Source of the DNA: Patescibacteria group bacterium
Lineage (GTDB): Bacteria; Patescibacteriota; Minisyncoccia; Minisyncoccales; Staskawiczbacteraceae
Direction: 5' to 3'
Assembly: GCA_018829965.1 (NCBI GenBank)
Contig: JAHJTG010000016.1
Location: forward strand, 29,537 to 93,536
Length of the DNA: 64,000 bases
The notes under the pieces were generated by a model. That model searched no databases and was not told the origin of the DNA. It saw only the letters and a list, made by a program, of their open reading frames with translations. Below, in pieces: positions 10,408-62,076 of this stretch. The position numbers and the translations under genes are program-made. How positions within the stretch are numbered: position 1 is the first letter of the stretch; every line of letters begins with the position of its first letter.

Positions 10408-11760
10408 TTAGCGCTTTCTATAATCAAAACGGCTTGATGGCCTACGACCAGACGGCCTACTATTTCTATGTGAAAAATAACTGCCTCTATTAAAACCACT
10501 GGGAGCATTAGATTGTCCCGATTCTATCGAGTATCCTTGATGGTTCCGACTTTGTCGAGAATCCTCGACTTTGTCGGGACTTTGCCATCTGGACTGACTT
10601 GAATGAGCTGGAAGATCGGGTAATCTTGAAATAGGAAGATATAGTCTGGTTAATCTTTCAATTTCTCTAACTTTAGCCCCTTGATCTGGTAAAACAAAAG
10701 AAATAGCTTTACCTGACATACCGGCCCTGCCAGTTCTTCCGATACGATGGACATAGTCTTCTGGATTTTCAGGAAGGTCATAATTAATAACTAATTCAAT
10801 ACCTTTAACATCTATACCGCGTGAAGCAATATCAGTTGCCACAAGCACCCTATATCTACCTATCTTAAATCCCTCTAATGCTTCTTTTCTTTGTCGGAGT
10901 GATTTATTTGAATGTATTTCTGCCGCAGAAACTCCAATATTGCGTAAATCTTCACAAATTCTCCTTGCGTTAAATTTAATTCTTAAAAAGATTAAAACGC
11001 TTCCCTTATATTCTTTAATCAATTTTCTCAATAACGAAGGCTTTTGGTCTTTTCTAACAACAAACAATTCGTGCTCAATATTTTTAGCAGTAGTCCCGGT
11101 TTTAGCTATCTCTACCCTAACAGGAAGCTTCATGTGATTGCTGGCAATTTTTACAATGCCATCTGGCATTGTTGCCGAAAATAACATAGTTTGTCTATCT
11201 TTAGGTAATACTTGTAGTATTTTAGCTATCTGTGGAGCAAAACCCATATCAAACATTCTATCGGCTTCATCTAAAACTAAGACTGTAACATCGCGCAAAT
11301 TAAGAGTTCTCTGTTGAAGATGGTCATTAATCCTTCCTGGAGTACCAATAACAACATTAGGATTATTACGGATCGCTCTTATTTGATTATAAATAGGGGC
11401 TCCACCGATTAACACAACTGTTTTTATGCCAAATCCTCTCCCTATCTTTTCTATAGCCTCACTCACCTGTATAGCTAATTCACGGGTTGGTAATACGATT
11501 AATCCCCTTCCCTTACCAGCTTTTAAAAGCCGCTGGACTAAAGGAATACCAAAAGCTAAGGTCTTACCTGTGCCTGTTTGAGCTATACCAATAATATCTT
11601 TGCCTTCAATAGCTGCAGGAATTGCTTTGTGTTGTATTGAGGTTGGAACTTTAAAATCCATTCTTAAAAGTACATCAAGAATCTTTGGAGCTATCCCAAG
11701 ACCGCCAAAAGTCATTTCTGTTTCGCTTAATATATGTTTTTCTGTTTGTTTGTTTATCAT
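10408..11760 (-). CDS. DEAD-box ATP-dependent RNA helicase with R/S/G-rich tail
   Basis: Q motif, AQTGTGKT, PTRELA, DEAD, SAT, HRIGRTGRAG. The C-terminal tail contains an in-frame GC-rich repeat (10517-10580). Confidence 0.93.
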   Translation of the reverse strand: MINKQTEKHILSETEMTFGGLGIAPKILDVLLRMDFKVPTSIQHKAIPAAIEGKDIIGIAQTGTGKTLAFGIPLVQRLLKAGKGRGLIVLPTRELAIQVSEAIEKIGRGFGIKTVVLIGGAPIYNQIRAIRNNPNVVIGTPGRINDHLQQRTLNLRDVTVLVLDEADRMFDMGFAPQIAKILQVLPKDRQTMLFSATMPDGIVKIASNHMKLPVRVEIAKTGTTAKNIEHELFVVRKDQKPSLLRKLIKEYKGSVLIFLRIKFNARRICEDLRNIGVSAAEIHSNKSLRQRKEALEGFKIGRYRVLVATDIASRGIDVKGIELVINYDLPENPEDYVHRIGRTGRAGMSGKAISFVLPDQGAKVREIERLTRLYLPISRLPDLPAHSSQSRWQSPDKVEDSRQSRNHQGYSIESGQSNAPSGFNRGSYFSHRNSRPSGRRPSSRFDYRKR

Positions 11761-16750: not shown

Positions 16751-19747
16751 TTAAGTTTGTCTAAAATCGCAAATATCTCTGAAGTCGCAATACTCGCACT
16801 GCCAGCCCGGAGTTGGCTCAAACTTACTATCTTTTATTGCCTCAATTTCTGCGATTATCTTTTCTTTTCTATCCTGCTTTTCTTTATCTGAGCCTAGAAA
16901 TGATGCTTGGCTATTGTTATCTAGGTAGTAATAGGCTAATTCTTTTGGTTTAATATTTAAAACCTCTTCTGCTGCTATTTGATAGATTAATAACTGGGAT
17001 TTATCGTCAGCTTCTAGCTTTTCTTTCGGTTTACCAGTTTTGTAATCAATAATCTTTACTCCATTTTCAGAATCATCAATCCTATCTATCACTCCGTATA
17101 AATTATATCCCCCTACTTTTAAATTGAAAGGTAGCTCTAATGCCAACTCATTGTTAATTTTTAAAATCTTTGGAGGATTCTTTTTAAAATCTTCGTAAAA
17201 ATCCTTAATTATCCTTTTGCCTAGTTTATAATAATCATCTTTTTGTTTTTTTGATTCGTACCACTCGCCAATCCAATTTCGTTCATAAAGCTTTTCCAAT
17301 ATTTTAAATTCATCCCCTTTCCCACTCTTCTTCCCAGTTATTGGGACGTATGACGTCCCAATAACTTTTTTACTAGGGCCGAATAGAGATTCTTGATTTA
17401 CTTTACTGGCTTCGTTTACATTTTTTAAAAAATTGTAAAGAGTGGCGTGCATTGTTTTACCGAACGAAAACACCGCCTTGCCCCTAATAGGAATCTTTAG
17501 AATAAACCCAAACTTGTACTGCAACGGACATTTTTCAAAGGCAGCCAGTTGGGAGAAAGAAAAATGCTCTGGCAAATACTTATTCTCTAATGTCTTAGGC
17601 TTTCTTATCTCTACCTTATCGGCTAATAAGCCCTTCTTTTCTTTAACTGCATCCCCTTTTGATTCTTCGTATCCCATTTCAATTAAAAATCTGGAAAGCT
17701 TCTTTTTTCTTTGACCTCCGTAATCTTGGGCCGATGTGAAATATAATCCTTTTTTAGCTCTCGTCATTGCCACATAACAAATACGCCTTTCTTCTTGCAA
17801 ATGCACGTCGCCTGTTGGTTTAATATCCTTAATTAATTCATCTGGTAATTCAATCGGTTCTTTTCTTTCTATCACAGGGAAACGCCTATCAACCATGCTT
17901 ACCAGAAACACATACTTAAACTCCAAGCCCTTAGCCGCGTGTATTGTCATTATTTTAACCATATCAGGACCTTGTTCTGGGTCAAATTCAAGTTTTCCTT
18001 CTTCTCCTGATTCAAGTTCTAAAGTAAGCTCCTCCATAAAGTTTTTTAAAGCAGGAGCAATTGCTGACTCCTCAAAACTTTGAACCTTATCGTAAAATTG
18101 GTTTAACAGGTCTAACTTCTCTTTTTCGTCTCGATTAATTAAATACTTTAAGTATCCGGAATCATTCATAAACGCCACTAATATCTCAATAACCGTTTTG
18201 TCTTTAACTAAAATGCTGTGTTTTTTGATTATAGAAAGGATAAAGCTTATCTTTTCTTTAGTTTGGGCGCTTACTCCAGTAATCAGCGGGGCTTCTTGCA
18301 ATGCCTCAAAAAGTGATTTGGTTTTTTTATGACCATATTGAGTAATAGTAGCAATATCCTCATCTGATATTTCCAAAAACGGCAAACTCAAAATCCTATA
18401 AACCGCTGCGCATTCATGGTAGTTATCCAATAATTTAAAGTAAGAGATAATATCTAAAATGACTGGCTTTGAATAAAGTCCTCTTGAAGCTAAAAATTGG
18501 TATGGCATGCCCGCTCTTTCTAAGGCTCTGACAAAGGGAATCGCTGTATCGTTTGCTCTTACTAAAATAGCAAAGTCGCTATAACTTGAATCTTTATCTC
18601 TCTTTAAAATTTCAGCAATCTTTTTTATTGTTTTCCTTACTTCTTCGTCTAAGCTTTTGGCACTAATATGTTCTATCACTCCTTCCCCCTTGTTCTCTGC
18701 AATTAACTTTTTATCAATCTTGTTTACAAACTCCAATCTATCAGGGTCGTTTGCTTTAATAAAAACATACGCTTTGTCTAAAATGTTTTGCGTAGACCTA
18801 TAGTTATTTATTAAAGATATTTGTTTGGCTTTTGTCCCGATTTCATCGAGGATCCTCGACGGCGAAGCCGTCGGGAAAAAATCCTTAGCAAACTGCACAA
18901 TATTATTAAAAGAAGCGCCTCTCCATCTATAAATAGCTTGGTCGTCGTCGGCACAGACAGTTAAATTATTTCCCGGTTCGGCTAATATCTTTATTAACTC
19001 ATACTGGGCGTAGTTTGTGTCTTGGAACTCGTCAACTAAAATATATTTAAACTTTTCCCTATACTTTTTTAAAATCAACGGACGCTTTTTAAATAAAAGC
19101 AAACAATAGTTTATTAAATCACCAAAATCCAATACGTCGTTATCTAAAAGCATTTTTTGATAAATATAGTAGGCATTAGCAACTTCTTTTATTCTTTCTG
19201 TCTCTTGGACTTCCGGCAAATCGTCTAAGCTTGTTTTTAAGCTATCTGCATATTTTAAATAGTCTTCTGGGTAAATACCTTGGTCTTTGCAGTGGGAAAA
19301 ATGATAAATTAGGGATTGTATAAACTTCGTGGGGTTCCCCAATGATTTGTAATAATTCAATTCAAATTTATTTAAGTTTTGACGAGCTAACAGCCACCCG
19401 GCGGTTCCATCTAATATTTTAAAATCGGGAGGCAATCCAATATCTAAAGCATTTTCCTTTAAAACTCTTTCGCAGAAGGCGTGGAATGTAGAAATCCACA
19501 AATCCATATATCCAAAGTCCAAAAGCTGGTCTACTCTTTCTTCCATCTCCCCTGCTGCCTTTTCAGTAAAAGTAACTGCTAAAATCTCCTCTGGCTTTGC
19601 CAAGCCCTTTTCAATTAAATTAACTATTCGCTGAGTAATAACCGTGGTTTTACCAGTTCCCGCCCCAGCCACAATTAAAAGAGGCCCCTTACCATGGACC
19701 ACCGCTTCCTTTTGCTCTTTGTTTAGTTTTTCCAAATTTAACGCCAT
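16751..19747 (-). CDS. UvrD/PcrA-type SF1A helicase fused to a C-terminal Cas4-like Fe-S PD-(D/E)XK nuclease
   Basis: AGAGTGKTT, DEFQDTN, helicase motifs through VAMTRAK. C-terminus has CPLQYKF, IDRIDD...IIDYKTGK...QLLIYQ, CEYCDFRDIC. Start set at MALNLEKL (19747), directly after F2 copy b; the track ORF reads on into the repeat. Confidence 0.88.
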   Translation of the reverse strand: MALNLEKLNKEQKEAVVHGKGPLLIVAGAGTGKTTVITQRIVNLIEKGLAKPEEILAVTFTEKAAGEMEERVDQLLDFGYMDLWISTFHAFCERVLKENALDIGLPPDFKILDGTAGWLLARQNLNKFELNYYKSLGNPTKFIQSLIYHFSHCKDQGIYPEDYLKYADSLKTSLDDLPEVQETERIKEVANAYYIYQKMLLDNDVLDFGDLINYCLLLFKKRPLILKKYREKFKYILVDEFQDTNYAQYELIKILAEPGNNLTVCADDDQAIYRWRGASFNNIVQFAKDFFPTASPSRILDEIGTKAKQISLINNYRSTQNILDKAYVFIKANDPDRLEFVNKIDKKLIAENKGEGVIEHISAKSLDEEVRKTIKKIAEILKRDKDSSYSDFAILVRANDTAIPFVRALERAGMPYQFLASRGLYSKPVILDIISYFKLLDNYHECAAVYRILSLPFLEISDEDIATITQYGHKKTKSLFEALQEAPLITGVSAQTKEKISFILSIIKKHSILVKDKTVIEILVAFMNDSGYLKYLINRDEKEKLDLLNQFYDKVQSFEESAIAPALKNFMEELTLELESGEEGKLEFDPEQGPDMVKIMTIHAAKGLEFKYVFLVSMVDRRFPVIERKEPIELPDELIKDIKPTGDVHLQEERRICYVAMTRAKKGLYFTSAQDYGGQRKKKLSRFLIEMGYEESKGDAVKEKKGLLADKVEIRKPKTLENKYLPEHFSFSQLAAFEKCPLQYKFGFILKIPIRGKAVFSFGKTMHATLYNFLKNVNEASKVNQESLFGPSKKVIGTSYVPITGKKSGKGDEFKILEKLYERNWIGEWYESKKQKDDYYKLGKRIIKDFYEDFKKNPPKILKINNELALELPFNLKVGGYNLYGVIDRIDDSENGVKIIDYKTGKPKEKLEADDKSQLLIYQIAAEEVLNIKPKELAYYYLDNNSQASFLGSDKEKQDRKEKIIAEIEAIKDSKFEPTPGWQCEYCDFRDICDFRQT

Positions 19748-19876
19748 AATTATGAGCGAGGAAGGAATGAAAATTGAGGAAGGAAAAAGTAAAAGTTTAC
19801 TTTTATTTTTGGCAACCGAAAATTTCATTCCGACCGAGCGATTAATTATATAGATAGCGAAGCTATCTCTATAATT
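19748..19876 (-). repeat. F2 leader element, copy b
   Basis: Gene-sense: ATTATAGAG-[ATAGCTTCGCTAT]-CTATATAATTAATCGCTCGGTCGGAATGAAA...TTTCATTCCTTCCTCGCTCATAATT-ATG. Confidence 0.85.
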
Positions 19877-21592: not shown

Positions 21593-22315
21593 TTATTTCT
21601 TTGAATTTTTGCCGTTAATAACAATTAGGGCGTGAAAATCCTGATATAAACGAAAATCTTTTCTCAAGTTTTCCTCAAATAATTTTTGCAGAAACTGATA
21701 ATCCGTCTTGTCTGCCAAATTACGCTCTTTAACTAATCTTCTGGTATATTCATCTATAACAAAAACTGGTTTATCTAAAGCGTAAAGTAAAATGCTATCA
21801 GCTGTTTCCGGTCCAATGCCTTTTAATTTTAGCAGTTCTTCCCTTAATTCTTTGAGTTCTGTTTTTTTCATTCTTTCCAAACTGCCATCCCGATTTAATC
21901 GAGGATCTCCCGATGAAATCGAGGATCCTCGACTCTGTCGGGACTCGACAGAGTCGGGATAATTCTCCACGATAAATTTGGATAAATTAAATAGATATTG
22001 GGCCTTGGTTTTGTAAAATCCCGAGGGTTTAATTAAAGGCACTAATCTTTTTGCGCCCAATTGATAAAGAGCCTTTAGCGAATTTATCTTTGCTTTCTTT
22101 AAATTATTTAAAGCCAATTCTACGTTTTTCCAATTTGTTCTCTGAGTTAAAATCGCCCCGATTGCTATTTCCTCTCTTTCTCGTCTAATTTTAGACCTTT
22201 TACACCAAAGTTTCCATTGTCCCTTAGGCGTTCCGTATTTCTTTTTTAACTCTTTATATAATTTCTCAAATTGTTTAACGTCGGATGTTAAACATTCACG
22301 TCGGGTGTTAAACAT
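21593..22315 (-). CDS. endonuclease III-related HhH-GPD DNA glycosylase with in-frame GC-rich insertion
   Basis: ILTQRTNWKNV and the HhH motif LKGIGPETADSILLYALDKPVFVIDEYTRR. About 23 extra residues (SRQSRGSSISSGDPRLNRDGS) are encoded by the repeat at 21889-21958. Confidence 0.8.
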   Translation of the reverse strand: MFNTRRECLTSDVKQFEKLYKELKKKYGTPKGQWKLWCKRSKIRREREEIAIGAILTQRTNWKNVELALNNLKKAKINSLKALYQLGAKRLVPLIKPSGFYKTKAQYLFNLSKFIVENYPDSVESRQSRGSSISSGDPRLNRDGSLERMKKTELKELREELLKLKGIGPETADSILLYALDKPVFVIDEYTRRLVKERNLADKTDYQFLQKLFEENLRKDFRLYQDFHALIVINGKNSKK

Positions 22316-25052: not shown

Positions 25053-25433
25053 TTACCTCTGGGCTAATGAACTATCTAGAATTTGGATGTATCCTATTCT
25101 TTTAACTTGAGTAAAGTTTAATTCTGCTGCCTTGCTTTGAATGTTTTCTAAATAACTGATTTGAGCAAGCCTTATTTCTAAATTCTTGTTTCCTTGAATG
25201 AGATTATCAACTTGCGCTTGATAGCTTTTAATCACATATCCCCCTCGAATCATTTCATTTATTTGGAAAACATACAAAACCGAAAAGAACAACACTCCGC
25301 AAAAACCAAACAACAAAAGAGCTTTCCAATTAATCTTCGGCAATCTAATTGTCGCCATTTTGGCGAGCCTCGCCATCGGGCGGGAAGATGCCTTTTGCAA
25401 AGAGAGTGTTTGAACTAATGCATGTGTTGTCAT
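25053..25433 (-). CDS. ftsL: FtsL-like cell-division protein (true start probably an internal Met)
   Basis: Single TM (ALLLFGFCGVLFFSVLYVF) followed by a coiled coil. Sits between rsmH and ftsI. Confidence 0.65.
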   Translation of the reverse strand: MTTHALVQTLSLQKASSRPMARLAKMATIRLPKINWKALLLFGFCGVLFFSVLYVFQINEMIRGGYVIKSYQAQVDNLIQGNKNLEIRLAQISYLENIQSKAAELNFTQVKRIGYIQILDSSLAQR

Positions 25434-25568
25434 AACTTTGAAAACTCTAAGTTCTAATTTCTAAATCCTAAATAATTTCAAAATTCAAATATCTAAATTA
25501 TAAACACTTTTGAACTTTGGGTTTTGAAATTGTAATTTATTTAGAGTTTAGGATTTGGGATTTAGAAT
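25434..25568. repeat. F4 inverted heptamer-array element, copy a
   Basis: (TCTAAnT)n ... taaataatttcaaaa / ttttgaaattgtaatttattta ... (AGGATTT/GGGATTT)n. Fills the rsmH-ftsL spacer and abuts the ftsL-ORF ATG. Confidence 0.8.
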
Positions 25569-26522
25569 TTATGTTTTAACTATTGCTCTTAATTTTGCTG
25601 ACCTTGAACGATTATTTGATTTAATTTCCTCTAATGAGGCTGTAATCGGCTTTTTTGTTAATATTTTTATTACGCCGTCTTTTGATTGGTCTCTAAAAAA
25701 GTTTTTAACGATTCTGTCTTCCAGAGAATGAAAGGAGATAACCACTAATCTTCCTCCGGGTTCTAACACCTCTATTGCTTGAGGTAAAACATTCTTCAAA
25801 TTCTCTAACTCCTGATTAACTGCGATTCTTAATGCTTGGAATGTTCTTGTTGCAAAATGGATTCTTCCTCTTTCATATCCTCTCGGTACTGCTTTTTTAA
25901 TAACTTCTATCAAGTCAGTTGTTGTTTCAAGTTTTTTTACCCTTCGAGCTTCTACGATCGCTTTAGCGATTCTTCTTGATAATCTTTCCTCCCCGTATTC
26001 TCTCAAGATTGCTTCTATGTCGTTCTCTCTCCAGCTGTTTACTATCTGCCTTGCAGTCAGCTCGTTATCCTTTAAATAACGCATATCAAGCGGTTCATTT
26101 TTCATAAAGGCGAATCCCCTGCCTGAATCGTCTAGGTGCCAACTAGACATTCCTAGATCCAGTAAAATCCCATTTACCCCGTTAGAGGTTTGTCCCCCTT
26201 GTTCATCTTGTTCCCCTTCCGAGCCTCCTTGACCTCTAACTGGGCGAGCTGACCCGAAGTTATTATCTCGGATAATTTCTTTTAAATTTGTATAAGAACC
26301 AACAACAAGAATGATTCGATTCTTGTAATTTTCAATTTCCAATTTACAATTTTCAATTTGTTGACTATCTAAATCGATTCCTAAAAGTTTTCCATTCGGA
26401 CCGCTTCTCTCTAATATCGCAATCGCATGACCGCCTTCGCCTATTGTGCAATCAATAAAGTTTTCATTGCTCTTTGGATTTAAATATTCAAGGACTTCTT
26501 TTGGCAGAACGGGTATATGCAT
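25569..26522 (-). CDS. rsmH: 16S rRNA m4C1402 methyltransferase RsmH with in-frame F3-like insertion
   Basis: MHIPVL, DCTIGEGGH, ILLDLGMSS, RGFAFMKNEPLDMR, SFHSLEDRIVK. About 25 extra residues come from 26177-26244. Confidence 0.92.
   Translation of the reverse strand: MHIPVLPKEVLEYLNPKSNENFIDCTIGEGGHAIAILERSGPNGKLLGIDLDSQQIENCKLEIENYKNRIILVVGSYTNLKEIIRDNNFGSARPVRGQGGSEGEQDEQGGQTSNGVNGILLDLGMSSWHLDDSGRGFAFMKNEPLDMRYLKDNELTARQIVNSWRENDIEAILREYGEERLSRRIAKAIVEARRVKKLETTTDLIEVIKKAVPRGYERGRIHFATRTFQALRIAVNQELENLKNVLPQAIEVLEPGGRLVVISFHSLEDRIVKNFFRDQSKDGVIKILTKKPITASLEEIKSNNRSRSAKLRAIVKT
26177..26244. mobile_element. F3-related short inverted-repeat element inside rsmH
   Basis: Left end ccccgttagaggtttg versus F3b ctccgttagaagtttgc. 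Right end acctctaactggg versus F3 acttctaacgggg. GC-rich interior, translated in frame. Confidence 0.65.
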
Positions 26523-37696: not shown

Positions 37697-37822
37697 AATA
37701 AACTCTAAATTCTAATATCTAAATTCTAAATAATTTCAAAACTAAAATATTTAAACTCGAAAAGTGTTTTGAATTTTGTGATTTAGAATTTGGGATTTAT
37801 TTAGGATTTAGTGCTTAGGATT
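37697..37822. repeat. F4 inverted heptamer-array element, copy c
   Basis: aaactctaaattctaatatctaaattctaaataatttcaaaa ... tttgaattttgtgatttagaatttgggatttatttaggatttag. Abuts the pcm ATG. Confidence 0.8.
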
Positions 37823-38200
37823 TTACAGTAACTTTCCTTGTCTTAATTTTTTAGTGATAGTTTCGGCTTTTTCTTTGCCTTCTTTGGTGATAGTAAATTC
37901 AGTTTTAGGATCTCCTTTAATAAGTTTCTGATTTCTCAATGCTCTTAATGGTCTGTCTAATTTCCTCGCATCCGGCCATTGAGGGTAGCTCTTAAAGCCA
38001 AAAACATCTGGGAATAAAATAAAGGATTGATTGACTAATTTCTCAAACTTACAATCTTGCTTGTTTGATAATATTGAATAAATACTAAAAAGAATCAAAT
38101 CACCTATCGACATCTTGGGAAAAGCTGTTTTTGTTTTATTTTTTTTATCTTTACTCATAATAGATGAACTTATTTTATTTTTCCCAAACAATATGTCCAT
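37823..38200 (-). CDS. hypothetical protein (first gene downstream of the R-M pair; start uncertain)
   Basis: 125-aa ORF overlapping the HNH gene by 26 nt. Internal Mets at residues 15 and 30 would remove the overlap. Confidence 0.45.
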   Translation of the reverse strand: MDILFGKNKISSSIMSKDKKNKTKTAFPKMSIGDLILFSIYSILSNKQDCKFEKLVNQSFILFPDVFGFKSYPQWPDARKLDRPLRALRNQKLIKGDPKTEFTITKEGKEKAETITKKLRQGKLL

Positions 38201-38759
38201 TTATATTGTGCTTTTCATAAGTCTCCAATACATCTACACAAAATTTAACCAATTCTTGGTTCTTTTCTCTTTTTGCTAATTCATATAAACGAATGAACAT
38301 TTTCTTACCTGTCTCGGTTTGCTTTAAATTCTTTTTAATAAAATTGTGTTGAGAGCACAAAGTTTGACCATTTTCTATTGTTGCTTCACCGCCTAAATCT
38401 TTGGGCTTTATATGATCAATGTGCAAATCCATGCCATCTTTTTTTCCCCTTCCGCAAATAACACACTTATAGCCATCTCTTTTTAAAATAGCTTCTTTTT
38501 GTAAAACACTAAAATCTTCCAATTTTCTTTTATGTGCTTTATCAGGATCATATTTATAAATTCCTTTAGAAATTTTAATCAAAAATCCGCTTTGAGACAA
38601 TTTACGAATAGCTCTATCTGGATCACGAAAGACATTTCCAGTTCTCTTTTTATAAGTCGTAACAACCCAATCTACAACTTCGGGGTGTTTTATATCTCTA
38701 TTTGGATTTTTCTTAAAAAACTCAATGATTAAGTCTTGTTGAATTACATTATTTTTCAT
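38175..38759 (-). CDS. HNH-family endonuclease (candidate type II restriction enzyme)
   Basis: CVICGRGKK...HIDHIKPKDLGGEATIENGQTLCSQHN (Cys pair plus H-N-H). Directly downstream of a DNA methyltransferase. Confidence 0.75.
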   Translation of the reverse strand: MKNNVIQQDLIIEFFKKNPNRDIKHPEVVDWVVTTYKKRTGNVFRDPDRAIRKLSQSGFLIKISKGIYKYDPDKAHKRKLEDFSVLQKEAILKRDGYKCVICGRGKKDGMDLHIDHIKPKDLGGEATIENGQTLCSQHNFIKKNLKQTETGKKMFIRLYELAKREKNQELVKFCVDVLETYEKHNINGHIVWEK

Positions 38760-38785
38760 AATTTTATTTAATTTATTAAGTTTGA

Positions 38786-39607
38786 TTAATTAATTTTCGC
38801 TTCTATCTGTAATCGATTAATCGCTATATCGCAATATTCTTTATCAATATCAACACCAATACTTTTTCTATTATGTGAATATGAGGCGATCAAAGTTGAA
38901 CCGCTTCCTAAAAAGGGATCTAAAACCGTATCACCTATAAAAGAAAATAATTTTATACATCTTCTTGGTAGCTCAACAGGAAATGGCGCAGGATGGCCAC
39001 CTGCTCCTTTTTTACTTTGACCATTAAATGTCCAAACACCATTTGTCCAATCCATAAACTCTTGCTTTGTAATATCATTTTTTCTACTACTTCCAGTTTT
39101 TTTCCAACTATCTTTATATAAAACTAAGATCAATTCTACTGGAGCAATAACATATGGAGCAGAAGCCGACATAAACGAACCCCAAGCAGTACGACGAGAT
39201 ATATTCCCCTCGTTCCAAATTATTGTTGAGTGATATTTCCAGCCAACATCCTTTGCGATTTTTGTAATATCTGCACCAACTGATTTTTGGCCACCTTTAT
39301 TTTTATCAAGCGGAATATTTAATAAAAAGCGCCCTTCATTTTTTGCTAAATCAAAACATTTTTTAATCCATTTTTGGGTAAATTCTAAATAATCTTCATA
39401 AGTCAAATTATCGGCATGAGAATTATAATGAATATCAACATTATAGGGCGGAGAAGTAACTATCAAATCAACTGAATTTTTTGGAATAGCTGTAATCTTC
39501 AAAATATCGTCTTTATAAATCAGAAGATTATCCCTTTCAAAATAGGGTTTTTGAGATTGCACATTATTAATATTTTTATTTTCTTCTATTATCGTTGTAT
39601 TTATCAT
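38786..39607 (-). CDS. beta-class N4-cytosine/N6-adenine DNA methyltransferase
   Basis: Catalytic DLIVTSPPYNV precedes the SAM motif VLDPFLGSGST (circularly permuted beta order). Confidence 0.88.
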   Translation of the reverse strand: MINTTIIEENKNINNVQSQKPYFERDNLLIYKDDILKITAIPKNSVDLIVTSPPYNVDIHYNSHADNLTYEDYLEFTQKWIKKCFDLAKNEGRFLLNIPLDKNKGGQKSVGADITKIAKDVGWKYHSTIIWNEGNISRRTAWGSFMSASAPYVIAPVELILVLYKDSWKKTGSSRKNDITKQEFMDWTNGVWTFNGQSKKGAGGHPAPFPVELPRRCIKLFSFIGDTVLDPFLGSGSTLIASYSHNRKSIGVDIDKEYCDIAINRLQIEAKIN

Positions 39608-42341: not shown

Positions 42342-43043
42342 TTAATTTTCAATGATTTTTCTGTTCTTCTCTCTCCACTCTTTAATTTTTTTATGATCTC
42401 CGGAAGTTAACACTTCAGGAACCCGCCATTTTTTAAAAACTTCCGGCCTAGTATATTGAGCGTATTCTATAAATCCCCCACTCTTTGTAATCCGTTCTTT
42501 TAATAATTTTTTCTTGCCAATAACTTTTGGGACTAACCTTGATATAGTTTCGACAACAATCATTGCCGGCAACTCTCCGCCCATTAAATCGTAATCCCCT
42601 ATTGATAATTCTAAATCTGCGATATTTTTAGCTACTCTTTCATCAACTCCTTCGTATCTTCCGCAAATCATAATTATTCTTTTTGATTTTGAAAGTTGAT
42701 GCGCTATCTTTTGATTAAACTTTTGTCCCCTTGGAGTAAATAATATCACCTTCGTTTTTGAATTTTTGGCTTTGAATTTTGGGCTTGTTTGGGATTTGGG
42801 ATTTGGGATTTGGGATTTCTTTAAATCTGCCACAGCTTTAAATATTGGCTCTACTTTCATTACCATGCCTAACCCACCTCCAAAAGGCTTATCGTCAACT
42901 GTTTTATGCTTACCATCTGCCCAATCTCTTAAATTGTGGATATTAACAGAAATCAGCTTATTTTTTATAGCTTTCCCGATAAGGGATTCTTTAAAATAGC
43001 TTTTGAAGATATCCGGAAAAATAGTGATGATATCGAATTTCAT
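42342..43043 (-). CDS. trmD: tRNA (guanine37-N1)-methyltransferase TrmD with heptamer-repeat insertion
   Basis: MKFDIITIFPDIF, DDKPFGGGLGMVMK, ICGRYEGVDERV, SIGDYDLMGGELPAM. About 23 extra residues (KKSQIPNPKSQTSPKFKAKNSKT) lie at 42753-42821. Confidence 0.92.
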   Translation of the reverse strand: MKFDIITIFPDIFKSYFKESLIGKAIKNKLISVNIHNLRDWADGKHKTVDDKPFGGGLGMVMKVEPIFKAVADLKKSQIPNPKSQTSPKFKAKNSKTKVILFTPRGQKFNQKIAHQLSKSKRIIMICGRYEGVDERVAKNIADLELSIGDYDLMGGELPAMIVVETISRLVPKVIGKKKLLKERITKSGGFIEYAQYTRPEVFKKWRVPEVLTSGDHKKIKEWREKNRKIIEN

Positions 43044-43677: not shown

Positions 43678-44223
43678 TTATTGTGGAACACCCGGTGTTC
43701 CGTCAACACTTGTTCCACCAACACCGGGTGTTGATTTTGCCTCTTCTTTTGCCTTTACTTCTTCCTTCTTAGATTCCTCTTTCTTCTCTACTACAACCTC
43801 TGGCTTTGCTTCTTCTTTCTTTTCTTCTTTCTTTGGTTCTTCCTTTGGTGTTTCTACGGCTGGAGTTACCGGTGCTATTGGTGTTATAGTCGCTTCTACA
43901 ACTGGTGCTATTGGGGCTGGTGCTGTCGGGGCTGCCGCCACTCCTTCTTTCTTCTTGCTTTTAACGTGAGTTGCTATTTTTTTACCTTCTATTACTTTTT
44001 CTCTTATTAAAAGGTTATGGATACTGACTGATGGCTGCGCGCCTTTTGAAATCCAATATTTTATTCGAGCGTTTTTTAAAGTCTTCTTTTTAGTAAAAGG
44101 ATTATATGTACCTAAAATCTCAACGCAGTCCCCAGCGCAAGAAGATTTTCTTTTATCAACAACTACAATCCTATAAGACGGCTGATTCTTTTTTCCTATT
44201 CTTGTGAATCTTATAACTAGCAT
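43678..44223 (-). CDS. rpsP: 30S ribosomal protein S16 with approx. 95-aa low-complexity C-terminal extension
   Basis: MLVIRFTRIGKKNQPSYRIVVVDKR core, then an A/P/E/K-rich tail. The last approx. 18 codons are encoded by GC palindromes at 43685-43733. Confidence 0.92.
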   Translation of the reverse strand: MLVIRFTRIGKKNQPSYRIVVVDKRKSSCAGDCVEILGTYNPFTKKKTLKNARIKYWISKGAQPSVSIHNLLIREKVIEGKKIATHVKSKKKEGVAAAPTAPAPIAPVVEATITPIAPVTPAVETPKEEPKKEEKKEEAKPEVVVEKKEESKKEEVKAKEEAKSTPGVGGTSVDGTPGVPQ

Positions 44224-45621: not shown

Positions 45622-45692
45622 TTTTCTTACGAATTACATATTAAACCGAATTACGAATTCGTAATTCGAAAGTATTCGTAATTCGTAGGATA
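45622..45692. repeat. F6 CGAATTACGAAT palindromic element, copy 2
   Basis: cttacgaattacatattaaaccgaattacgaattcgtaattcgaaagtattcgtaattcgtagg. Abuts the nusB ATG. Confidence 0.85.
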
Positions 45693-48693: not shown

Positions 48694-48779
48694 TCTTATA
48701 GAAATAACTTCGTTATTTATATAATTATTGCATTCGGTCGAAATGAAAATTAATTTTCATTTCTTCCTCATTTATAATT
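48694..48779 (+). repeat. F2 leader element, copy e (only plus-strand copy; same orientation relative to its gene)
   Basis: TTATAGAAATAACTTCGTTATTTATATAATTATTGCATTCGGTCGAAATGAAAATTAATTTTCATTTCTTCCTCATTTATAATT-ATG. Confidence 0.8.
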
Positions 48780-57388: not shown

Positions 57389-58663
57389 TTAAAACGGCGC
57401 GATCTCTCTCCATTTAGGCAATCCGCTTCCTCCTGATTTCACTAATATGTTATTAGGAGAAGTTAAACAATAACCGACTTCAGGATCATCAACTTTTAAC
57501 TTCATAGAGTAACTACCGCTAATATTATAGGTATGGTAAGTGTTTCCTTTATCACTGCCGACTTGACCGTCGCCAAATATCCAAGAGTATGTTATCCCGT
57601 CGCCATTTTGGCATGAATAAGAAGCACCGCTTACGTAGTAGCAAATTGACGAATCCAAGAATGTAACCAAGCTTCCAACTACAGGAACTAACGGTGAAAA
57701 ACTAAATTGAGGATAAGGCCAAGCGTGAGCAGCGGTTATAAATGTTGTTGGTATAGCAGACCAGCCAGAATCACCATGTTGGTCCCAAACTTTTGCCCGA
57801 ACATAATAAGATGTTCCGTAAGGGATGCGATCAGTAGCAGAAGGATTCAAACTTACCTGAACTATCTGGCTATTAATACTTCCTACTGGGTTTGAAACAA
57901 GAAAACTTCTGTTAATCTCTGGAGAAGAGAAATCGGAATCATTATCTACCTGAAAAGCAAAGCTTATTTCATTTTCTCCATCTATGTCGCGATATGTCCA
58001 TTGGAAAGAACCTACTATGCCATTACAATAATTTTCAGAATTAGGTACGAAAACAAAGCTTCCACTTTCAATATATGGTGACGGATTTTCTTCCTCCTCT
58101 TCTTCCTCTTCTTCCTCTTCTTCCTCTTCTTCCTCTTCTTCCTCTTCTTCCTCTTCTTCCTCTTCTTCCTCTTCTTCCTCTTCCTCCTCTTCTTCCTCTT
58201 CTTCCTCTTCTTCCTCCTCCTCCTCTTCTTCCTCTTCTTCCTCTTCTTCCTCTTCTTCACCACAAGGCCAGTCATGTTCACAATCTACAACACAACAAGG
58301 TTCGCACCAACAAACAGTTGTACAACTCTCATCACAATAAACATAACCGGTATAACACCAACTATCCCCTAGACAACACTTTTCATAAAAATAGTTGCAA
58401 GGTGGAACAGAAATTCTATCACCACAAGGTAGCCCGGATCTATCACAACAATCTTTTTCAGGGGTACCATAACCAGAACAACTTTCATCGCAACCACCAG
58501 TAGATATATTTCCAGAACAACAAGCTTCTTCAGCATCTACGTTCTCTATTTTTTCTATTTTAAAAAACCATAAACAAAAAACAATCAATGCGAATATCAA
58601 TAAAGTTGTTTTTAAAAAGGACAGGAAGGGAATTAATTGAAAATGATTTTTTCTAAAAAACAT
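57389..58663 (-). CDS. exported protein: Cys-rich module, approx. 57-residue poly-Glu tract, Ig-like and PKD domains
   Basis: Start at MFFRKN (58663) avoids overlap with the upstream gene. TM/signal LLIFALIVFCLWFF. More than 20 Cys in about 95 aa. Glu run 58088-58258. C-terminal PKD signature YSWIFGDGQ...HTYNISGSYSMKLKVDD. Confidence 0.75.
   Translation of the reverse strand: MFFRKNHFQLIPFLSFLKTTLLIFALIVFCLWFFKIEKIENVDAEEACCSGNISTGGCDESCSGYGTPEKDCCDRSGLPCGDRISVPPCNYFYEKCCLGDSWCYTGYVYCDESCTTVCWCEPCCVVDCEHDWPCGEEEEEEEEEEEEEEEEEEEEEEEEEEEEEEEEEEEEEEEEEEEEEEEEEEEEEEEEENPSPYIESGSFVFVPNSENYCNGIVGSFQWTYRDIDGENEISFAFQVDNDSDFSSPEINRSFLVSNPVGSINSQIVQVSLNPSATDRIPYGTSYYVRAKVWDQHGDSGWSAIPTTFITAAHAWPYPQFSFSPLVPVVGSLVTFLDSSICYYVSGASYSCQNGDGITYSWIFGDGQVGSDKGNTYHTYNISGSYSMKLKVDDPEVGYCLTSPNNILVKSGGSGLPKWREIAPF
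58088..58258. repeat. GAA/GAG trinucleotide tract (mostly 9-nt unit ctcttcttc), 171 nt
   Basis: Uninterrupted (ttc/ctc)n on the plus strand. Codes poly-Glu on the minus strand. Confidence 0.95.
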
Positions 58664-58671
58664 AAAAATAA

Positions 58672-59253
58672 TTATTGAATACCCTTTAATTCTAATAGAA
58701 CCTTTATCAAACAAGTTCGTCTTGCAAAATCAGAAACTTTAAAGCTTTTATCTTCTGAACAAAGAGCGGAGCTTTTTTCGTTAATCGCTTTTTCGGTAAG
58801 CGCTACTCCGCTCAGACACTCTTCCTTTAATTCAGGGGCGTCGATGATTTTTTCGCATATTTGAGTATCTAATATATTTATTGACTTATGAATTACGCTA
58901 GTATAGTTATCCACGGGAAAATAAATCTTTTCGTCTTTTTCTTTACATTTGCTAAAACATTCAAGCGTTAAATCTATATCTTTAATAGAACTGCAATATT
59001 TAGTAGGTTCAATTTTTAACACTTCTTTATTTTCCACCTCATAAGTATAATAACATTTATTTTGAAGCTGAAGAGATGGCGCTTTAGAGCAATCCTCAGG
59101 ATTAAAATTCTTCAAAAGAACGCTCTTTTTAATACAATCGTCGTCTTTGCACCTTTCTATGGATGGTTTTAAATAAAAAAAGGCAAAAACAGCCGTTAAT
59201 ACTAAAACTATTACTATTGAAACTACTAGTATTAAAAGCTGTTTTTTATTCAT
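58672..59253 (-). CDS. Cys-rich exported protein
   Basis: 193 aa, N-terminal TM (LLILVVSIVIVLVLTAVFAFF), 13 Cys in recurring C-x(n)-C modules. Confidence 0.55.
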   Translation of the reverse strand: MNKKQLLILVVSIVIVLVLTAVFAFFYLKPSIERCKDDDCIKKSVLLKNFNPEDCSKAPSLQLQNKCYYTYEVENKEVLKIEPTKYCSSIKDIDLTLECFSKCKEKDEKIYFPVDNYTSVIHKSINILDTQICEKIIDAPELKEECLSGVALTEKAINEKSSALCSEDKSFKVSDFARRTCLIKVLLELKGIQ

Positions 59254-59273
59254 TTTATTATTTTAGCACGATT

Positions 59274-60377
59274 TTACTGGCAACCGCCACCCGCACTGCC
59301 AGAAGGGGTTACTTGCTGAGAACTCTCATATTGTTCAGAAAAACTAGACGCCGCACTTTTCTCGCTTAGTTTTTGTGAGCAAATTTCTAGATTTTCACTG
59401 AAACCACAACATAATAAAGTTTTTACCGCCTCAGCTGTTCTTCCGCCAAACCAGAATTCCGAACCTCGTTCCCCATTTAAGAACATTGTCGGAGAGCCGT
59501 TTGCCCCGTATTTTTTTTGCAAGTCAAAATCCACTTGCGCATATTTTAAACCACGACTGCTATCCGTCATACAAGCATTTAATCCACTTGTATTTATTTT
59601 AGCAGATACTAAACAACTTTCCATGTCTCCTTTTTTAATATGGCAGGAAATATAGTTCCAGTATTTGCTCCCCTCTTCTTCCCTTATACAAATCTGCCTT
59701 AAATTTTCCTGCGCTTCCGCGTCCCCATGCATTGATGTTATTTTCTCGCCCGAAATAGAACCGAGATATTCTACTTTTATATTTTCGACTAAAGAGGGGA
59801 TATTTTTAACAACTTCGGCTAAAACTCTCTGCATTTGCAAACCAAAAGGACATTTGCTTACCACAAAAGCTTCTAATAATGCTTTTTTGTCTTTTTTAAT
59901 TTCTTCACAAGATGTTTTCTGCGCATTATTATTTGCTGTTTCAGCGGTAGTTCCGCCTGTATTCCCAGTAACTGCTTTTTCGTCTAAATTATATGCCTGT
60001 GGAAAAAACAGCTTTCCATCAATTGTGGTGTACCCTATTGTTTCGTTCGTCCCTATTTTAAACCGCACTTTAATAAATCCGTCTTCTTTAATCGCATCTA
60101 TTAAAACAGCTGTTGACTGTCCTTTTAATATTTTTTCGTTAATATAAGTGATTGTTTTCTGGGCAATTTCCTGTGAAGAAGAATGTTCTGTTATCCCTAA
60201 GAATTTGAAATTTATTAATCCGCCTGAAAAACCAACAATCGCAACCGTAATAATAATACCGGCAACTGCAATCGCCGGAAGCATAAAATTTTGGGATAAT
60301 AATTTTTTGCTTGGCTTCAACTCTTTAAAAAATTTGGCCACTGCCGAAAGAATATCTTTTTTATTTAACTTAGACAT
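59274..60377 (-). CDS. membrane-anchored thioredoxin-fold (DsbA/glutaredoxin-like) protein
   Basis: N-terminal TM. Thioredoxin-like block EAFVVSKCPFGLQ...GSPTMFLNGE (active-site-like CPFG, cis-Pro-like SPT). Confidence 0.5.
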   Translation of the reverse strand: MSKLNKKDILSAVAKFFKELKPSKKLLSQNFMLPAIAVAGIIITVAIVGFSGGLINFKFLGITEHSSSQEIAQKTITYINEKILKGQSTAVLIDAIKEDGFIKVRFKIGTNETIGYTTIDGKLFFPQAYNLDEKAVTGNTGGTTAETANNNAQKTSCEEIKKDKKALLEAFVVSKCPFGLQMQRVLAEVVKNIPSLVENIKVEYLGSISGEKITSMHGDAEAQENLRQICIREEEGSKYWNYISCHIKKGDMESCLVSAKINTSGLNACMTDSSRGLKYAQVDFDLQKKYGANGSPTMFLNGERGSEFWFGGRTAEAVKTLLCCGFSENLEICSQKLSEKSAASSFSEQYESSQQVTPSGSAGGGCQ

Positions 60378-60462
60378 AGGTTTTATTTATTGAAAATATT
60401 TTTTAAATTAATAAACTTTATTATTTTTATTATACATTAAAACCTACTTGCAAAAAAGGATG

Positions 60463-61386
60463 TCAAATTGTGAATAACTTTTTTACCGGATAAAAAGACT
60501 TCCTATGTATGGGACAAGACCCGAATTTTTTCAGCATTTTTATATGTAGTTTCGTCGGATATCCTTTGTGCTTATCAAATCTGTATTGGGGATATTTTTT
60601 ATGAAACCTTTCCATTATTCTATCGCGACTGACTTTAGCGATAATACTAGCTGCTGAAATTGAAATAACTTTTTGGTCGCCCTTAATAATACTTTTTTGT
60701 GACAAACCTATATTCAACCTAAAATTTCCGTCAATCAACAAATAATCTATATTTTTGAACTTTGGATTTAGAATTTGCTCCGACTTTGTTCCGACCTTGT
60801 CGAGAATGCTCGACTTTGTCGGCATCGAGAGTCCTCGACGATGTCGGGATTTAGAGTTTAGTATTTTGGATTTAGAATTTAAATTAGCGACGGCCTTAAT
60901 CATTGCTAATTTTGTCGCTTCTAAAATATTAATTTCGTCAATGATTTTTTCCGAGACCTTTCCTATCCCCCATTTGATGTTTGGGTGAGTAGTAATAACA
61001 TCGTAAAATTGCTCTCGTTTTTTAGGTGAAAGTTGTTTTGAATCTTTGATGCCAGAAATCCAAAACCCTAAATTAGAAATCCCAAACAAATCCAAATTAC
61101 TAAATTCTAAATTCAAAATGCGTTTAGACTTTTGAGTTTTTGAATTTTGAACTTGCTCCGACTTTGTTCCGACCTTGTCGAGAATGCTCGACTTTGTCGG
61201 CATCGAGAGTCCTCGATTATATCGGGATTTAGGATTTAGGATTTTGGATTTAGGATTTTTCAGCATTACTGCTGCTGCAACCACCGGTCCCGCGAGCGGT
61301 CCGCGACCTGCCTCGTCTAATCCAACAACCGCTTTACATTCTTTCTTCCACAATTTTTTTTCTTCATTAAAATTAGGATATTTCAT
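60463..61386 (-). CDS. rnhB: ribonuclease HII carrying two in-frame copies of a composite repeat
   Basis: GLDEAGRGPLAGPVVAAAV, IKDSKQLSPKKRE, LLIDG, AASIIAKVSRD, HKGYPT, HRKSF. Extra segments at residues 43-112 and 170-212. Confidence 0.9.
   Translation of the reverse strand: MKYPNFNEEKKLWKKECKAVVGLDEAGRGPLAGPVVAAAVMLKNPKSKILNPKSRYNRGLSMPTKSSILDKVGTKSEQVQNSKTQKSKRILNLEFSNLDLFGISNLGFWISGIKDSKQLSPKKREQFYDVITTHPNIKWGIGKVSEKIIDEINILEATKLAMIKAVANLNSKSKILNSKSRHRRGLSMPTKSSILDKVGTKSEQILNPKFKNIDYLLIDGNFRLNIGLSQKSIIKGDQKVISISAASIIAKVSRDRIMERFHKKYPQYRFDKHKGYPTKLHIKMLKKFGSCPIHRKSFYPVKKLFTI
60751..60879 (-). repeat. composite heptamer-arm plus GC-core repeat, copy 2 inside rnhB
   Basis: ggatttagaatttgctccgactttgttccgaccttgtcgagaatgctcgactttgtcggcatcgagagtcctcgacgatgtcgggatttagagtttag... 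Translated NSKSKILNSKSRHRRGLSMPTKSSILDKVGTKSEQILNPKFKN. Confidence 0.85.
61051..61260 (-). repeat. composite heptamer-arm plus GC-core repeat, copy 1 inside rnhB
   Basis: The same approx. 105-nt core as 60776-60880 (few mismatches) plus an additional heptamer arm at 61060-61140. Translated KNPKSKILNPKSRYNRGLSMPTKSSILDKVGTKSEQ... Confidence 0.85.
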
Positions 61387-61417
61387 AAAATAGAATAATA
61401 ATATATAAAAATACCCT

Positions 61418-61451
61418 CCGTGAAAATCACGCTATAGCGTGATTTTCACGG
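61418..61451. promoter_or_regulatory. 34-bp perfect palindrome upstream of rnhB (operator-like)
   Basis: ccgtgaaaatcacgctatagcgtgattttcacgg. About 45 bp including the flank is identical to 62022-62070. Confidence 0.6.
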
Positions 61452-61459
61452 ATACGTCA

Positions 61460-61999
61460 CTATATCAATTTAAAAACTTTTTCGAAATAATTTTCATTAT
61501 CAATCGACTCTAAAATACCGAAACGAACATACTTATTTAAATTAAAAAATTTAACTAAAAGTCCTATTTCTTTTTTACATTCATAGGGAGTTATAAAAAT
61601 ACTCTTCTGCAATTTACAAAATCCTATTTTCTTTAATTTTTGGCGAAGCGCGTCTCTTCCTCTTTTATATTTTTCTGGAATATCAAAGGCAACTATTCTC
61701 CATTTCCCATCCCATTTCCCTTTTTTGTTTTTTAAATTATCAAGCTGATAATTTAATGCTTTTAATTCACCTTTTTTTGTTAACAATATTTCTATTAAGC
61801 CGTTTTCTTTTTTGTTTTTTTCTATAAACTTAAAGCGATAGAGATCGCTTATTTCTCTTTTTAATTCTTTTTGGTTTATTTTCTTCCATTCTTTAGAAAC
61901 CGTTCTTAATATTTTTAACTGCTTACCATGCGTATAACTACAACCAAAAGCTATCCCGCCCAATAAAAGTAATAATATTTTTTCTTTTACTGTATTCAT
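61460..61999 (-). CDS. PaaX-like regulator-family protein (winged-helix N-terminus, Cas2/VapD-like C-terminal fold)
   Basis: C-terminal WDGKWRIVAFDIPEKYKRGRDALRQKLKKIGFCKLQKSIFITPY matches my recollection of the PaaX C-terminal domain. Confidence 0.5.
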   Translation of the reverse strand: MNTVKEKILLLLLGGIAFGCSYTHGKQLKILRTVSKEWKKINQKELKREISDLYRFKFIEKNKKENGLIEILLTKKGELKALNYQLDNLKNKKGKWDGKWRIVAFDIPEKYKRGRDALRQKLKKIGFCKLQKSIFITPYECKKEIGLLVKFFNLNKYVRFGILESIDNENYFEKVFKLI

Positions 62000-62028
62000 T
62001 ATTTTGTTATATCACAAAAACATAAAAT

Positions 62029-62076
62029 ATACCCTCCGTGAAAATCACGCTATAGCGTGATTTTCACGGAGGGTAT
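62029..62076. promoter_or_regulatory. 48-bp perfect palindrome upstream of the PaaX-like gene (operator-like)
   Basis: ataccctccgtgaaaatcacgctatagcgtgattttcacggagggtat. Confidence 0.6.

Follow-up and report, generated by a model that had tools for sequence, protein, structure and literature searches.

Rickettsia palindromic elements (RPEs) are in-frame palindromic repeats in housekeeping genes (Ogata et al. 2000, 2002, summarised in PMC10969869), and each of them encodes a conserved peptide according to the review PMC10969869. Repetitive extragenic palindromes (REPs) of the GTAG and CGTC types are mostly intergenic, with a subset inside genes; many intragenic REPs lie in replication, repair and RNA-helicase genes, some open reading frames (ORFs) are hit twice, and the CGTC REPs have no dedicated transposase (Di Nocera et al. 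2013, PMC3733652). The MITEs of bacteria (miniature inverted-repeat transposable elements), such as Correia, ERIC, BOX and others, are reviewed in PMC10969869, and coding palindromes whose arms both encode conserved protein parts are found in mitochondrial genes of Nematomorpha (PMC6649704). Here we describe a palindromic element that is present twice within rnhB, the gene of ribonuclease HII (RNase HII), in a 64,000-nucleotide (nt) stretch of the genome of a Patescibacteria group bacterium (positions 29,537 to 93,536 of contig JAHJTG010000016.1), hereafter referred to as the window; coordinates are those of the window unless a locus is named. Patescibacteria have very small genomes and are thought to be poor in mobile DNA. 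We consider it probable that the rnhB repeats are tolerated, translated passenger copies of a dispersed REP/MITE-like palindromic element.

The rnhB gene (60463..61386, minus strand) is listed as an intact ORF of 307 amino acids (aa) that hosts both inserts. A 62-nt core occurs exactly twice in the window, at 60777-60838 and 61155-61216 (0 mismatches), with an expected count of 0 in 100 dinucleotide shuffles. The preliminary description of this DNA had reported a direct repeat of about 105 nt at 60776-60880 and 61152-61262. The repeat was confirmed and proved slightly wider, reaching 120 nt in direct orientation (60761-60880 and 61139-61258, 92% identity) with a spacing of 378 nt between copies. 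None of the 62 positions inside the identical stretch is mismatched versus 10 of 58 outside it (Fisher p = 4.5e-4). A codon listing bore out that the two copies share one reading frame in rnhB, being read as ...NPKSKILNPKSRYNRGLSMPTKSSILDKVGTKSEQ... and ...NSKSKILNSKSRHRRGLSMPTKSSILDKVGTKSEQ....

The repeat unit is composite, with a nested organization that the preliminary description does not mention. A 73-nt GC-rich multi-hairpin element, with boundaries set by alignment with four outside copies, lies inside AT-rich arrays of TAAATCC-type heptamers (GGATTTA-type on the plus strand), which flank both copies as had been described. The element runs from TCCCGA to GTCGGAGC on the rnhB coding strand (GCTCCGAC to TCGGGA on the plus strand) and lacks stop codons in each of the six frames. 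Within it are a hairpin of 32 nt (CCGAC-N3-GTCGAG-N4-CTCGAC-N3-GTCGG), another, small hairpin (TCGAG-N4-CTCGA) and direct repeats of 11 nt. Its terminal inverted repeats amount to one imperfect 7-nt pair, CTCCGAC...GTCGGGA, with 6/7 complementary positions. Copy A (60777..60849, minus strand; nhmmer E = 2e-20) and copy B (61155..61227, minus strand; nhmmer E = 1e-20) differ at 3 positions in the 3′ sub-terminal segment, the plus-strand sub-variants being CGACGATGTCGGGA in A and CGATTATATCGGGA in B. All four AT-rich copies of the 73-nt variant have the same flanks inside their arrays, TT / element / TTTAG. A putative 2-nt TT duplication would bring the insertion to 75 nt (73 + 2), which keeps the frame, and is indistinguishable from the repetitive array.

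Insert 1 (site 1, aa 44-109; 61060..61257, minus strand) consists of an outer heptamer arm, the 73-nt core, an inner AT-rich hairpin and a second outer arm, and occupies a gap after residue 36 and before residue 39 of Thermotoga maritima RNase HII. The outer arm (61225..61260, minus strand), (GGATTTA)x5 on the plus strand, is read as KNPKSKILNPKS; it has a period of 7, 4.9 copies and 92% matches by Tandem Repeats Finder (TRF) and pairs with 61056-61092. The inverted outer arm (61056-61092) and the inner AT-rich hairpin (61088-61154), recognized from inverted repeats I1, I4 and I13 together with the RNA fold, are read as QVQNSKTQKSKRILNLEFSNLDLFGISNLGFWI (61056..61154, minus strand). This extra inverted arm of site 1 (61056-61118) agrees with the earlier account. 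When folded as RNA, insert 1 (~200 nt) forms one long hairpin (-78.8 kcal/mol, z = -7.7) from which the core and the inner AT hairpin branch off. Insert 2 (site 2, aa 174-214; 60745..60867, minus strand) falls in the gap between T. maritima residues 100 and 102, ends 5 residues ahead of the LIDG aspartate and has a fold z of -2.9. It is ordered as a heptamer array N-terminal of core A (60846..60885, minus strand; read as NSKSKILNSKS; TRF period 7, 5.4 copies), the 73-nt core and an array remnant C-terminal of it (60761..60776, minus strand; TTTGGATTTAGAATTT). The remnant is an exact direct repeat of 60865-60880 (16/16) and runs into 28 nt, AAATCCAAAGTTCAAAAATATAGATTAT, exactly common to the relative P0003.

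The rnhB product matched RNase_HII (PF01351) in Pfam with an E value of 1.6e-34, in three stretches, and its best solved-structure relatives in a PDB sequence search were the RNase HII of T. maritima (9e-42) and Escherichia coli (2e-36). A database protein of a Patescibacteria group bacterium, named ribonuclease HII, matches it at 100% identity; the nearest relatives, from Staskawicz- and Nealsonbacteria, are ~55-59% identical. Relative to T. maritima RNase HII (reference structure 3o3g), the extra residues are aa 44-109 (~66) and aa 174-214 (~41), close to the ~70 and ~43 claimed previously. Insert 1 falls between strand 2 and the DSK motif, insert 2 stops shortly before the LIDG aspartate, and the conserved segment between them (aa 110-173) is in correct order. 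The motifs DEAG (aa 24-27), DSK (115-117), LIDG (217-220) and the C-terminal HKGYPT/HRKSF, said to be unaffected, are all present, and their columns are invariant or almost so in an alignment of the 120 closest homologues. Residues D24, E25, G27-R28-G29, D115, K117, D219 and D237 are kept in columns that are invariant, and so is every other family-invariant residue.

An AlphaFold2 model built on the 120 homologues placed both inserts, as the preliminary description had proposed to do, in low-confidence unstructured loops on a confident RNase HII fold. The predicted local distance difference test score (pLDDT) exceeds 90 across the RNase HII core and drops to 44-58, with nearly no secondary structure, in aa 44-110 and 174-214 (44-53 for insert 1, 52-58 for insert 2). 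In Foldseek the model had target-normalised template modelling (TM) scores of 0.91 against E. coli RNase HII and 0.78 against T. maritima RNase H2. Sites 1 and 2 are the most length-variable loops of the family: the site 1 segment ranges from 11 to 74 residues, window rnhB being the longest, and the site 2 segment from 11 to 60. Since the fold is modelled as preserved and all family-invariant residues are kept, the enzyme is most likely intact and carries two floppy surface loops.

A perfect (TAAATCC)n array gives TAA in each third unit, in any frame. The sole stop-phase heptamer in both rnhB copies is, however, AAAATCC or AAAATAC, not TAAATCC. The corresponding heptamer is CAAATCC in a copy inside a gatA-type gene of another metagenome (locus L018), whereas an intergenic copy (L024) retains its stops. 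Because stop-phase heptamers are altered in the genic copies and kept in the intergenic one, this is direct evidence that genic copies were filtered for an open frame and for translation through them. The 307-codon frame of rnhB is open over ~320 nt of AT-rich repeat, where chance in-frame stops would be frequent. Across host genes the core family is read as PTKSSILDKVGT, PDKVEDSRQSR and ADFVEHSRQNR, in at least two frames and in both orientations. Since frames and orientations vary among copies, it is the DNA and not the peptide that is conserved in the family. A 30-aa phmmer query with the insert peptide gave 0 matches in 1.84 billion representatives, and a 44-aa insert query gave no candidate sharing words. 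Both searches have low power for such short queries and show no more than that the insert peptide is not a recognisable protein family.

With a small nhmmer profile, five members of the core family were found in the window, two of them in rnhB. A diverged member (10516..10580, minus strand) in the C-terminal tail of a DEAD-box helicase (10408..11760) is read in another frame, as SPDKVEDSRQSRNHQGYSIESG; its E value (6e-14) is that of a seed sequence of the profile, and the Pfam DEAD and Helicase_C domains of the host end at aa 347. A short member (18831..18885, minus strand; E = 1e-4), read as PTASPSRILDEIGTKAKQ, is situated between the two helicase domains of a UvrD-like helicase-nuclease (16751..19828), in which the Pfam domains stop at aa 317 and restart at aa 337. 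The last, a non-seed copy (21888-21958; E = 2.5e-16), has the opposite orientation (plus strand) inside an HhH-GPD glycosylase gene (21593..22315, minus strand), is read as PDSVESRQSRGSSISSGDPRLNRDG and accompanies ~27 extra residues compared with Helicobacter pylori MagIII (1pu6).

Heptamer arrays also occur in the window without the core. One (42754..42818, minus strand) is in frame in trmD (42342..43043), read as SQIPNPKSQTSPKFKAK; it is one-armed, gives a 17-residue insertion compared with TrmD 8byh and forms no hairpin. Intergenic heptamer-array hairpins are present between 25053..25433 and mraW (25446..25572, fold z = -3.5), upstream of the L10 gene (35647..35750, z = -2.5) and between the PCMT gene and the next ORF (37699..37823, z = -3.2), and (TTTAGGA)n / (CTAAACG)n arrays lie upstream of the L32 gene (45981..46047, z = -4.4). 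The rnhB gene holds two of the ~7 GGATTTA-array sites of the window. Arrays of a further unit, (TTACGAA)n/(AATTCGT)n, form a near-perfect hairpin between the RNase III and nusB genes (45125-45185; -31.2 kcal/mol, z = -9.3), with a second array of that unit after nusB (45656-45687). Spacers of this genome seem in general to feature palindromic period-7 arrays with differing units.

A stem-pattern scan of genomes, one per species, revealed 17 loci, with well under 1 expected by an estimate from base composition; stem bases are fixed by design in the collection scans, whose hits are therefore blind to compensatory change. The loci come from Saccharibacteria, Wildermuth-, Roizman-, Jorgensen- and Daviesbacteria, Dehalococcoidia and others, and a metagenome scan added eight. 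Such dispersal over many genes and genomes is not part of the preliminary description. The gatA-type amidase gene of L018 contains, in frame and with heptamer arrays, an exact 73-nt copy of core A that is read as ...NPKSRHRRGLSMPTKSSILDKVGTKSEQIPNSK..., the same peptide as in rnhB. Locus L024 has an exact 73-nt copy of core B with full inverted arms in the spacer between divergent genes. Three GC-rich Jorgensenbacteria contigs (L014, L020, L025) carry a near-exact element with one extra 11-mer and no heptamers, and a metagenome-assembled genome (MAG) of Dehalococcoidia (L003) has a full-length 73-nt element whose termini and layout are those of the window core. Internal interruptions by family members were found in PCMT, UvrC, ClpB-like and GatA-type amidase genes of other Patescibacteria or metagenome loci. 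The ClpB-like genes form a filled/empty pair, with a 33-residue insert in L022 and none in the window ortholog. Further copies are in terminal extensions of TsaD, L23 and S9 open frames, where translation depends on the true gene ends. No scanned genome or metagenome locus had two core matches 378 nt apart. Searches for the core in viral contigs of IMG/VR, phages of INPHARED and plasmids of PLSDB found no copy, so that no vector was identified there.

The Dehalococcoidia MAG JAUSCR01 (Chloroflexota; GC 0.57-0.61) contains several related elements built of CGAC/GTCG words, at L003, L005, L011 and L016. The Dehalococcoidia copies suggest a cross-phylum superfamily or horizontal spread. Long (GGATTTA)n arrays were seen in the IMG/VR contigs L047, L049, L050 and L054 (~37-40 kb) at positions ~645-750, as 3-5 consecutive 21-nt matches ~650 nt from one end of these similar-sized contigs; they are possibly a terminal-repeat feature of a phage group.

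Relatives proved to have array-occupied loops, another point on which the preliminary description was silent. At site 1, many of the 120 closest homologues of the rnhB product have peptides of the kind NPKFKTLNPKQIQNSKFK...LDLFRISDLGFRIL. In the DNA of nine relatives these peptides correspond to heptamer-array hairpins whose unit sequence varies by genome, and period-7 arrays in the relatives' loci concentrate in rnhB. Site-1 segments fold better than dinucleotide shuffles in 10/10 orthologues (z = -2.8 to -8.5), whereas control segments from the same rnhB genes mostly do not. In two relatives, P0059 and P0043, the same position of the site-1 hairpin is taken by different GC-rich mini-hairpins. 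Many close homologues are without any insert, with site lengths down to 11 residues. The syntenic relative P0003 (same upstream PaaX_M-like gene, 73-78% nucleotide identity) has at site 2 only (AAAATCC)3 followed by the 28 nt identical to the window, i.e. a state without the core. At its site 1 there is the same core hairpin in another frame, read as ADFVEHSRQNRN. Comparison with relatives, put forward earlier as a source of empty sites, gave in P0003 an array-only state at site 2. Relatives carry arrays at both loops without the 73-nt element, as a full hairpin at site 1, and for this reason the arrays are probably older than the core at the rnhB loops. The 3′ end of P0003 rnhB (L027 1560-1616) bears a GC-rich palindrome, CTGCCCCGACGTCCGACGTCGGGGCAGC, translated as the C-terminal extension LPRRPTSGQQK; it may be another hairpin absorbed into the ORF, perhaps a terminator.

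These states point to the following course of events, which we infer from the compared sequences. TAAATCC-type arrays would have settled first at both surface loops of RNase HII, and at each loop the 73-nt element would then have moved into the array, whether through transposition by a transposase acting in trans or through array-to-array copying driven by homology. The copies could persist owing to the six-frame stop-free element, a net insertion that keeps the frame and alteration of the TAA-phase heptamer to AAAATCC. Since the core is stop-free, the net insertion is in frame and the TAA heptamer is altered, the ribosome would read through, and the ~66 and ~41 residues would hang as disordered loops at the most length-tolerant positions of an enzyme that presumably retains its activity. 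The inserts are best explained as passenger (selfish or neutral) DNA and not as a selected protein domain. Earlier, two in-frame hits in one gene had been taken to imply either very high insertion pressure with strong filtering for frame, or tolerance or selection of the peptide. Tolerance (variable loops, disordered in the model) and frame filtering (altered heptamers) stand, and selection of the peptide does not, given the varying frames and orientations. Very high insertion pressure is not needed, since arrays at both loops provide a shared target or homology. Under uniform random insertion, both copies of this variant falling in one 0.9-kb gene of a 64-kb window would be rare; with array targeting or array homology, rnhB being two of ~7 array sites, the double hit is unremarkable. 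By analogy with repair genes reported to be hit twice by intragenic REPs (PMC3733652), it is not exceptional in itself.

Several observations weigh against the passenger reading. No transposase, RAYT (REP-associated tyrosine transposase) or TnpB-like gene was detected by Pfam among the ~60 window ORFs, and no clear target-site duplication is visible, the possible TT alone excepted. The exact variant has only two copies in 64 kb, 378 nt apart in one gene; the outside copies L018 and L024 stem from another metagenome; and the site-1 hairpin, kept in 10/10 orthologues examined, could have a function of its own. Some of these points suit intragenic copying, in which one copy was inserted and then gave rise to the other through ectopic gene conversion or template switching via the arrays. 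Both window copies of the variant are in the same gene, a 62-nt stretch is identical while the flanks differ, and the array context is the same at both copies (...ILN(P/S)K^...^Q(I/V)(L/Q)N.K); the arrays offer two-sided homology, and the 16-nt exact direct repeat brackets copy A. However, the sub-variants, differing at 3 positions, each match a different outside copy exactly, A the one in gatA (L018) and B the intergenic one (L024), which points to two source lineages, and the element is clearly dispersed among unlinked genes. For this reason two separate acquisitions are favoured over copying within rnhB, though not proven, and the "independent hits" of the preliminary description keep that standing. 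The outside matches come from another metagenome, and intragenic conversion is therefore still a live rival, which we rate as possible but rather unlikely.

The site-1 hairpin bears on the alternative that the inserts have a selected function, either as Lys-rich flexible loops altering substrate or partner binding of RNase HII, as an mRNA hairpin controlling how rnhB is expressed or how stable its mRNA is, or as a structure in the DNA. In its favour are the presence of array hairpins at site 1 in a large share of the 120 nearest homologues, their folding far better than shuffles in all ten orthologues with controls mostly not doing so, the concentration of the relatives' period-7 arrays in rnhB, and the different GC-rich mini-hairpins of P0059 and P0043 at one and the same position. 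On the other hand, many close homologues are without an insert (down to 11 residues), elsewhere the core takes other frames and orientations, the peptide had no match in the low-power search of 1.84 billion representatives, the inserts are predicted to be disordered and intergenic copies exist. We regard a selected function of the inserts as improbable. A broader proposal is that the site-1 array palindrome is a maintained, lineage-wide coding hairpin of Parcubacteria RNase HII that acts at the RNA/DNA level and is also a landing pad repeatedly capturing GC-rich mobile hairpins, the 73-nt element belonging to an undescribed cross-phylum (Patescibacteria, Dehalococcoidia), six-frame-open family specialised for intragenic survival. 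Such a hairpin could, for example, control rnhB expression or be a slippage-prone switch of a repair gene, the latter idea stemming from the frame shifts that 7-nt units cause. We think that this proposal is unlikely to hold. The main point of interest that remains is the coding hairpin at rnhB site 1, which is widespread in Parcubacteria and folds strongly.

An artefact would consist of a duplication introduced by assembly, and a dead gene of an rnhB pseudogene open by chance. The source is a MAG, and assemblers can be misled by repeats. Against this, contig k127_94920 (3969 bp) of an independent ENA assembly is 100% identical to window 58105-62073 over its 3969 nt, both copies included, which speaks against the assembly artefact that had been named as a possible refutation. 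Furthermore, aa 110-173 are in proper order between the copies, and the identical part (62 nt) is shorter than an ordinary read. As to a dead gene, rnhB keeps its invariant and catalytic residues and an open frame of 307 codons, and its phase-0 heptamer is specifically altered. Either possibility appears very remote to us. Two other candidates were rejected. A diversity-generating retroelement does not fit ten mismatches that are mixed (G/A, A/T, T/C, C/T, G/T and others), lie outside the core and are not adenine-specific, and the window has no reverse transcriptase. For an intein or self-splicing intron, only RNase_HII was found by Pfam and no intron match by Rfam, and the stop-purged arms argue for translation. 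In Rfam, neither the locus (at E up to 1) nor the window (at the gathering threshold) yielded anything other than noise and four tRNAs.

By analogy, the closest functional parallel to the rnhB element is the RPEs and the closest structural parallel the intragenic REPs (PMC3733652). With RPEs it has in common short dispersed hairpin repeats, in frame in unrelated housekeeping genes with host ORFs intact, an extra peptide where the fold tolerates it and no identified transposase. Dispersal is seen in the exact copies L018 and L024, the near-exact copies L014, L020 and L025 and the five window members. In-frame internal copies occur in the unrelated, intact genes of rnhB (twice), UvrD-like helicase, glycosylase, GatA-type amidase, ClpB-like protein, PCMT and UvrC; the element forms hairpins, and the inserts lie where the fold tolerates them (variable loops, low pLDDT). 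The host, in contrast, belongs to an unrelated phylum, and the likeness is one of behaviour. Unlike RPEs, whose peptide is conserved, the 73-nt core is open in six frames and occurs in several reading frames and in both orientations. The rnhB copies are, moreover, nested in AT-rich heptamer arrays and have relatives in several Patescibacteria lineages and Dehalococcoidia.

Like GTAG/CGTC REPs, the element is a short GC-rich palindrome, and as with intragenic REPs its hosts include genes of nucleic-acid enzymes, namely RNase HII, UvrD-like helicase, UvrC, DNA glycosylase and DEAD-box helicase. It differs in being a 73-nt unit of several hairpins with fixed termini and not a single 20-40-nt stem-loop, and in that no RAYT was seen in the window. 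No GTAG/CTAC or CGTC tag is conserved at either end; GACG is present in copy A only (CGACGATG), not in B (CGATTATA). MITEs resemble it in being small, devoid of coding capacity of their own, hairpin-forming, dispersed and occasionally fused in frame to host ORFs. Unlike them, it has terminal inverted repeats of only ~7 nt that are imperfect, and an uncertain target-site duplication. A parent insertion sequence with matching ends was found neither in the window nor, the core being absent from them, in the viral, phage and plasmid collections. Long inverted repeats retained in translated genes are shared with Nematomorpha, the rnhB site-1 hairpin being kept in 10/10 orthologues; in rnhB, however, the arms encode a dispensable, length-variable loop. 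The rnhB element is best filed as a new family of a recognised phenomenon in a new host group, distinguished by its six-frame-open core, its nesting in heptamer arrays and its spread over several Patescibacteria lineages and Dehalococcoidia. A literature search on palindromic in-frame repeats, MITEs or REPs of Patescibacteria or the Candidate Phyla Radiation turned up nothing relevant, a weak negative with poor coverage of subscription journals.

The 64-kb window has five in-frame copies of a GC-rich palindromic family in nucleic-acid enzymes, as well as heptamer-array hairpins in two genes and several spacers. If this holds genome-wide, Patescibacteria would offer, beside Rickettsia, a second, independent natural system for studying by what means selfish DNA spreads into coding sequence and in what way proteins accommodate insertions of 20-70 residues, and the inserts would account for part of the odd length variation and low-complexity stretches in predicted Patescibacteria proteins. 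Inserts of this kind inflate protein lengths and split domain matches, as with the three stretches of RNase_HII, and can mislead annotation and homology clustering.

Other features of the window and of related loci were noted. The PaaX_M-like gene (61460..61999, minus strand) upstream of rnhB also adjoins rnhB in the relatives L026, L027 and L032. Between it and the rnhB start, at 61419-61450, is a perfect 16+16-nt palindrome, CGTGAAAATCACGCTA/TAGCGTGATTTTCACG, which could be a terminator or operator. In a Staskawiczbacteria relative, dnaE beside rnhB (L029 1-5229) contains a pair of inteins, of which one includes a LAGLIDADG endonuclease. A 9-nt tandem repeat, TCTTCTTCC, at 58089-58258 (18.9 copies, 95% matches) encodes 57 uninterrupted glutamates in a Cys-rich PKD-domain protein (ORF 57389..58714, minus strand). 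Length inflation of housekeeping proteins in this genome extends to ribosomal proteins S16 (43678..44223, minus strand; 181 aa, domain only at aa 8-65) and L7/L12 (34567..35085, minus strand; 172 aa, domains from aa 52), both of which have long repeat-rich extensions with tandem repeats at 43804-43934 and 34799-34846, respectively.

A conserved motif of ~65 nt was found directly upstream of three starts, those of a Mur-ligase-like gene, a small L33-like ORF and a glycosyltransferase gene (23270-23355, 41185-41260 and 48690-48785), and also at L024 3385-3480. Its sequence, given for the strand opposite to the downstream gene, is ATAATTATGAGTGAGGGAGGAATAAAAATTAATTTTTATTCCGACCGAATG.AATAATTATATAAA, with a hairpin, GGAATAAAAATTAATTTTTATTCC, and a TATAAT-like box. 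It had no match in Rfam and looks like a shared promoter or 5′ leader. Finally, at 38175..39607 (minus strand) an HNH endonuclease gene adjoins an N6/N4 DNA methylase gene, and the two are likely a restriction-modification pair.

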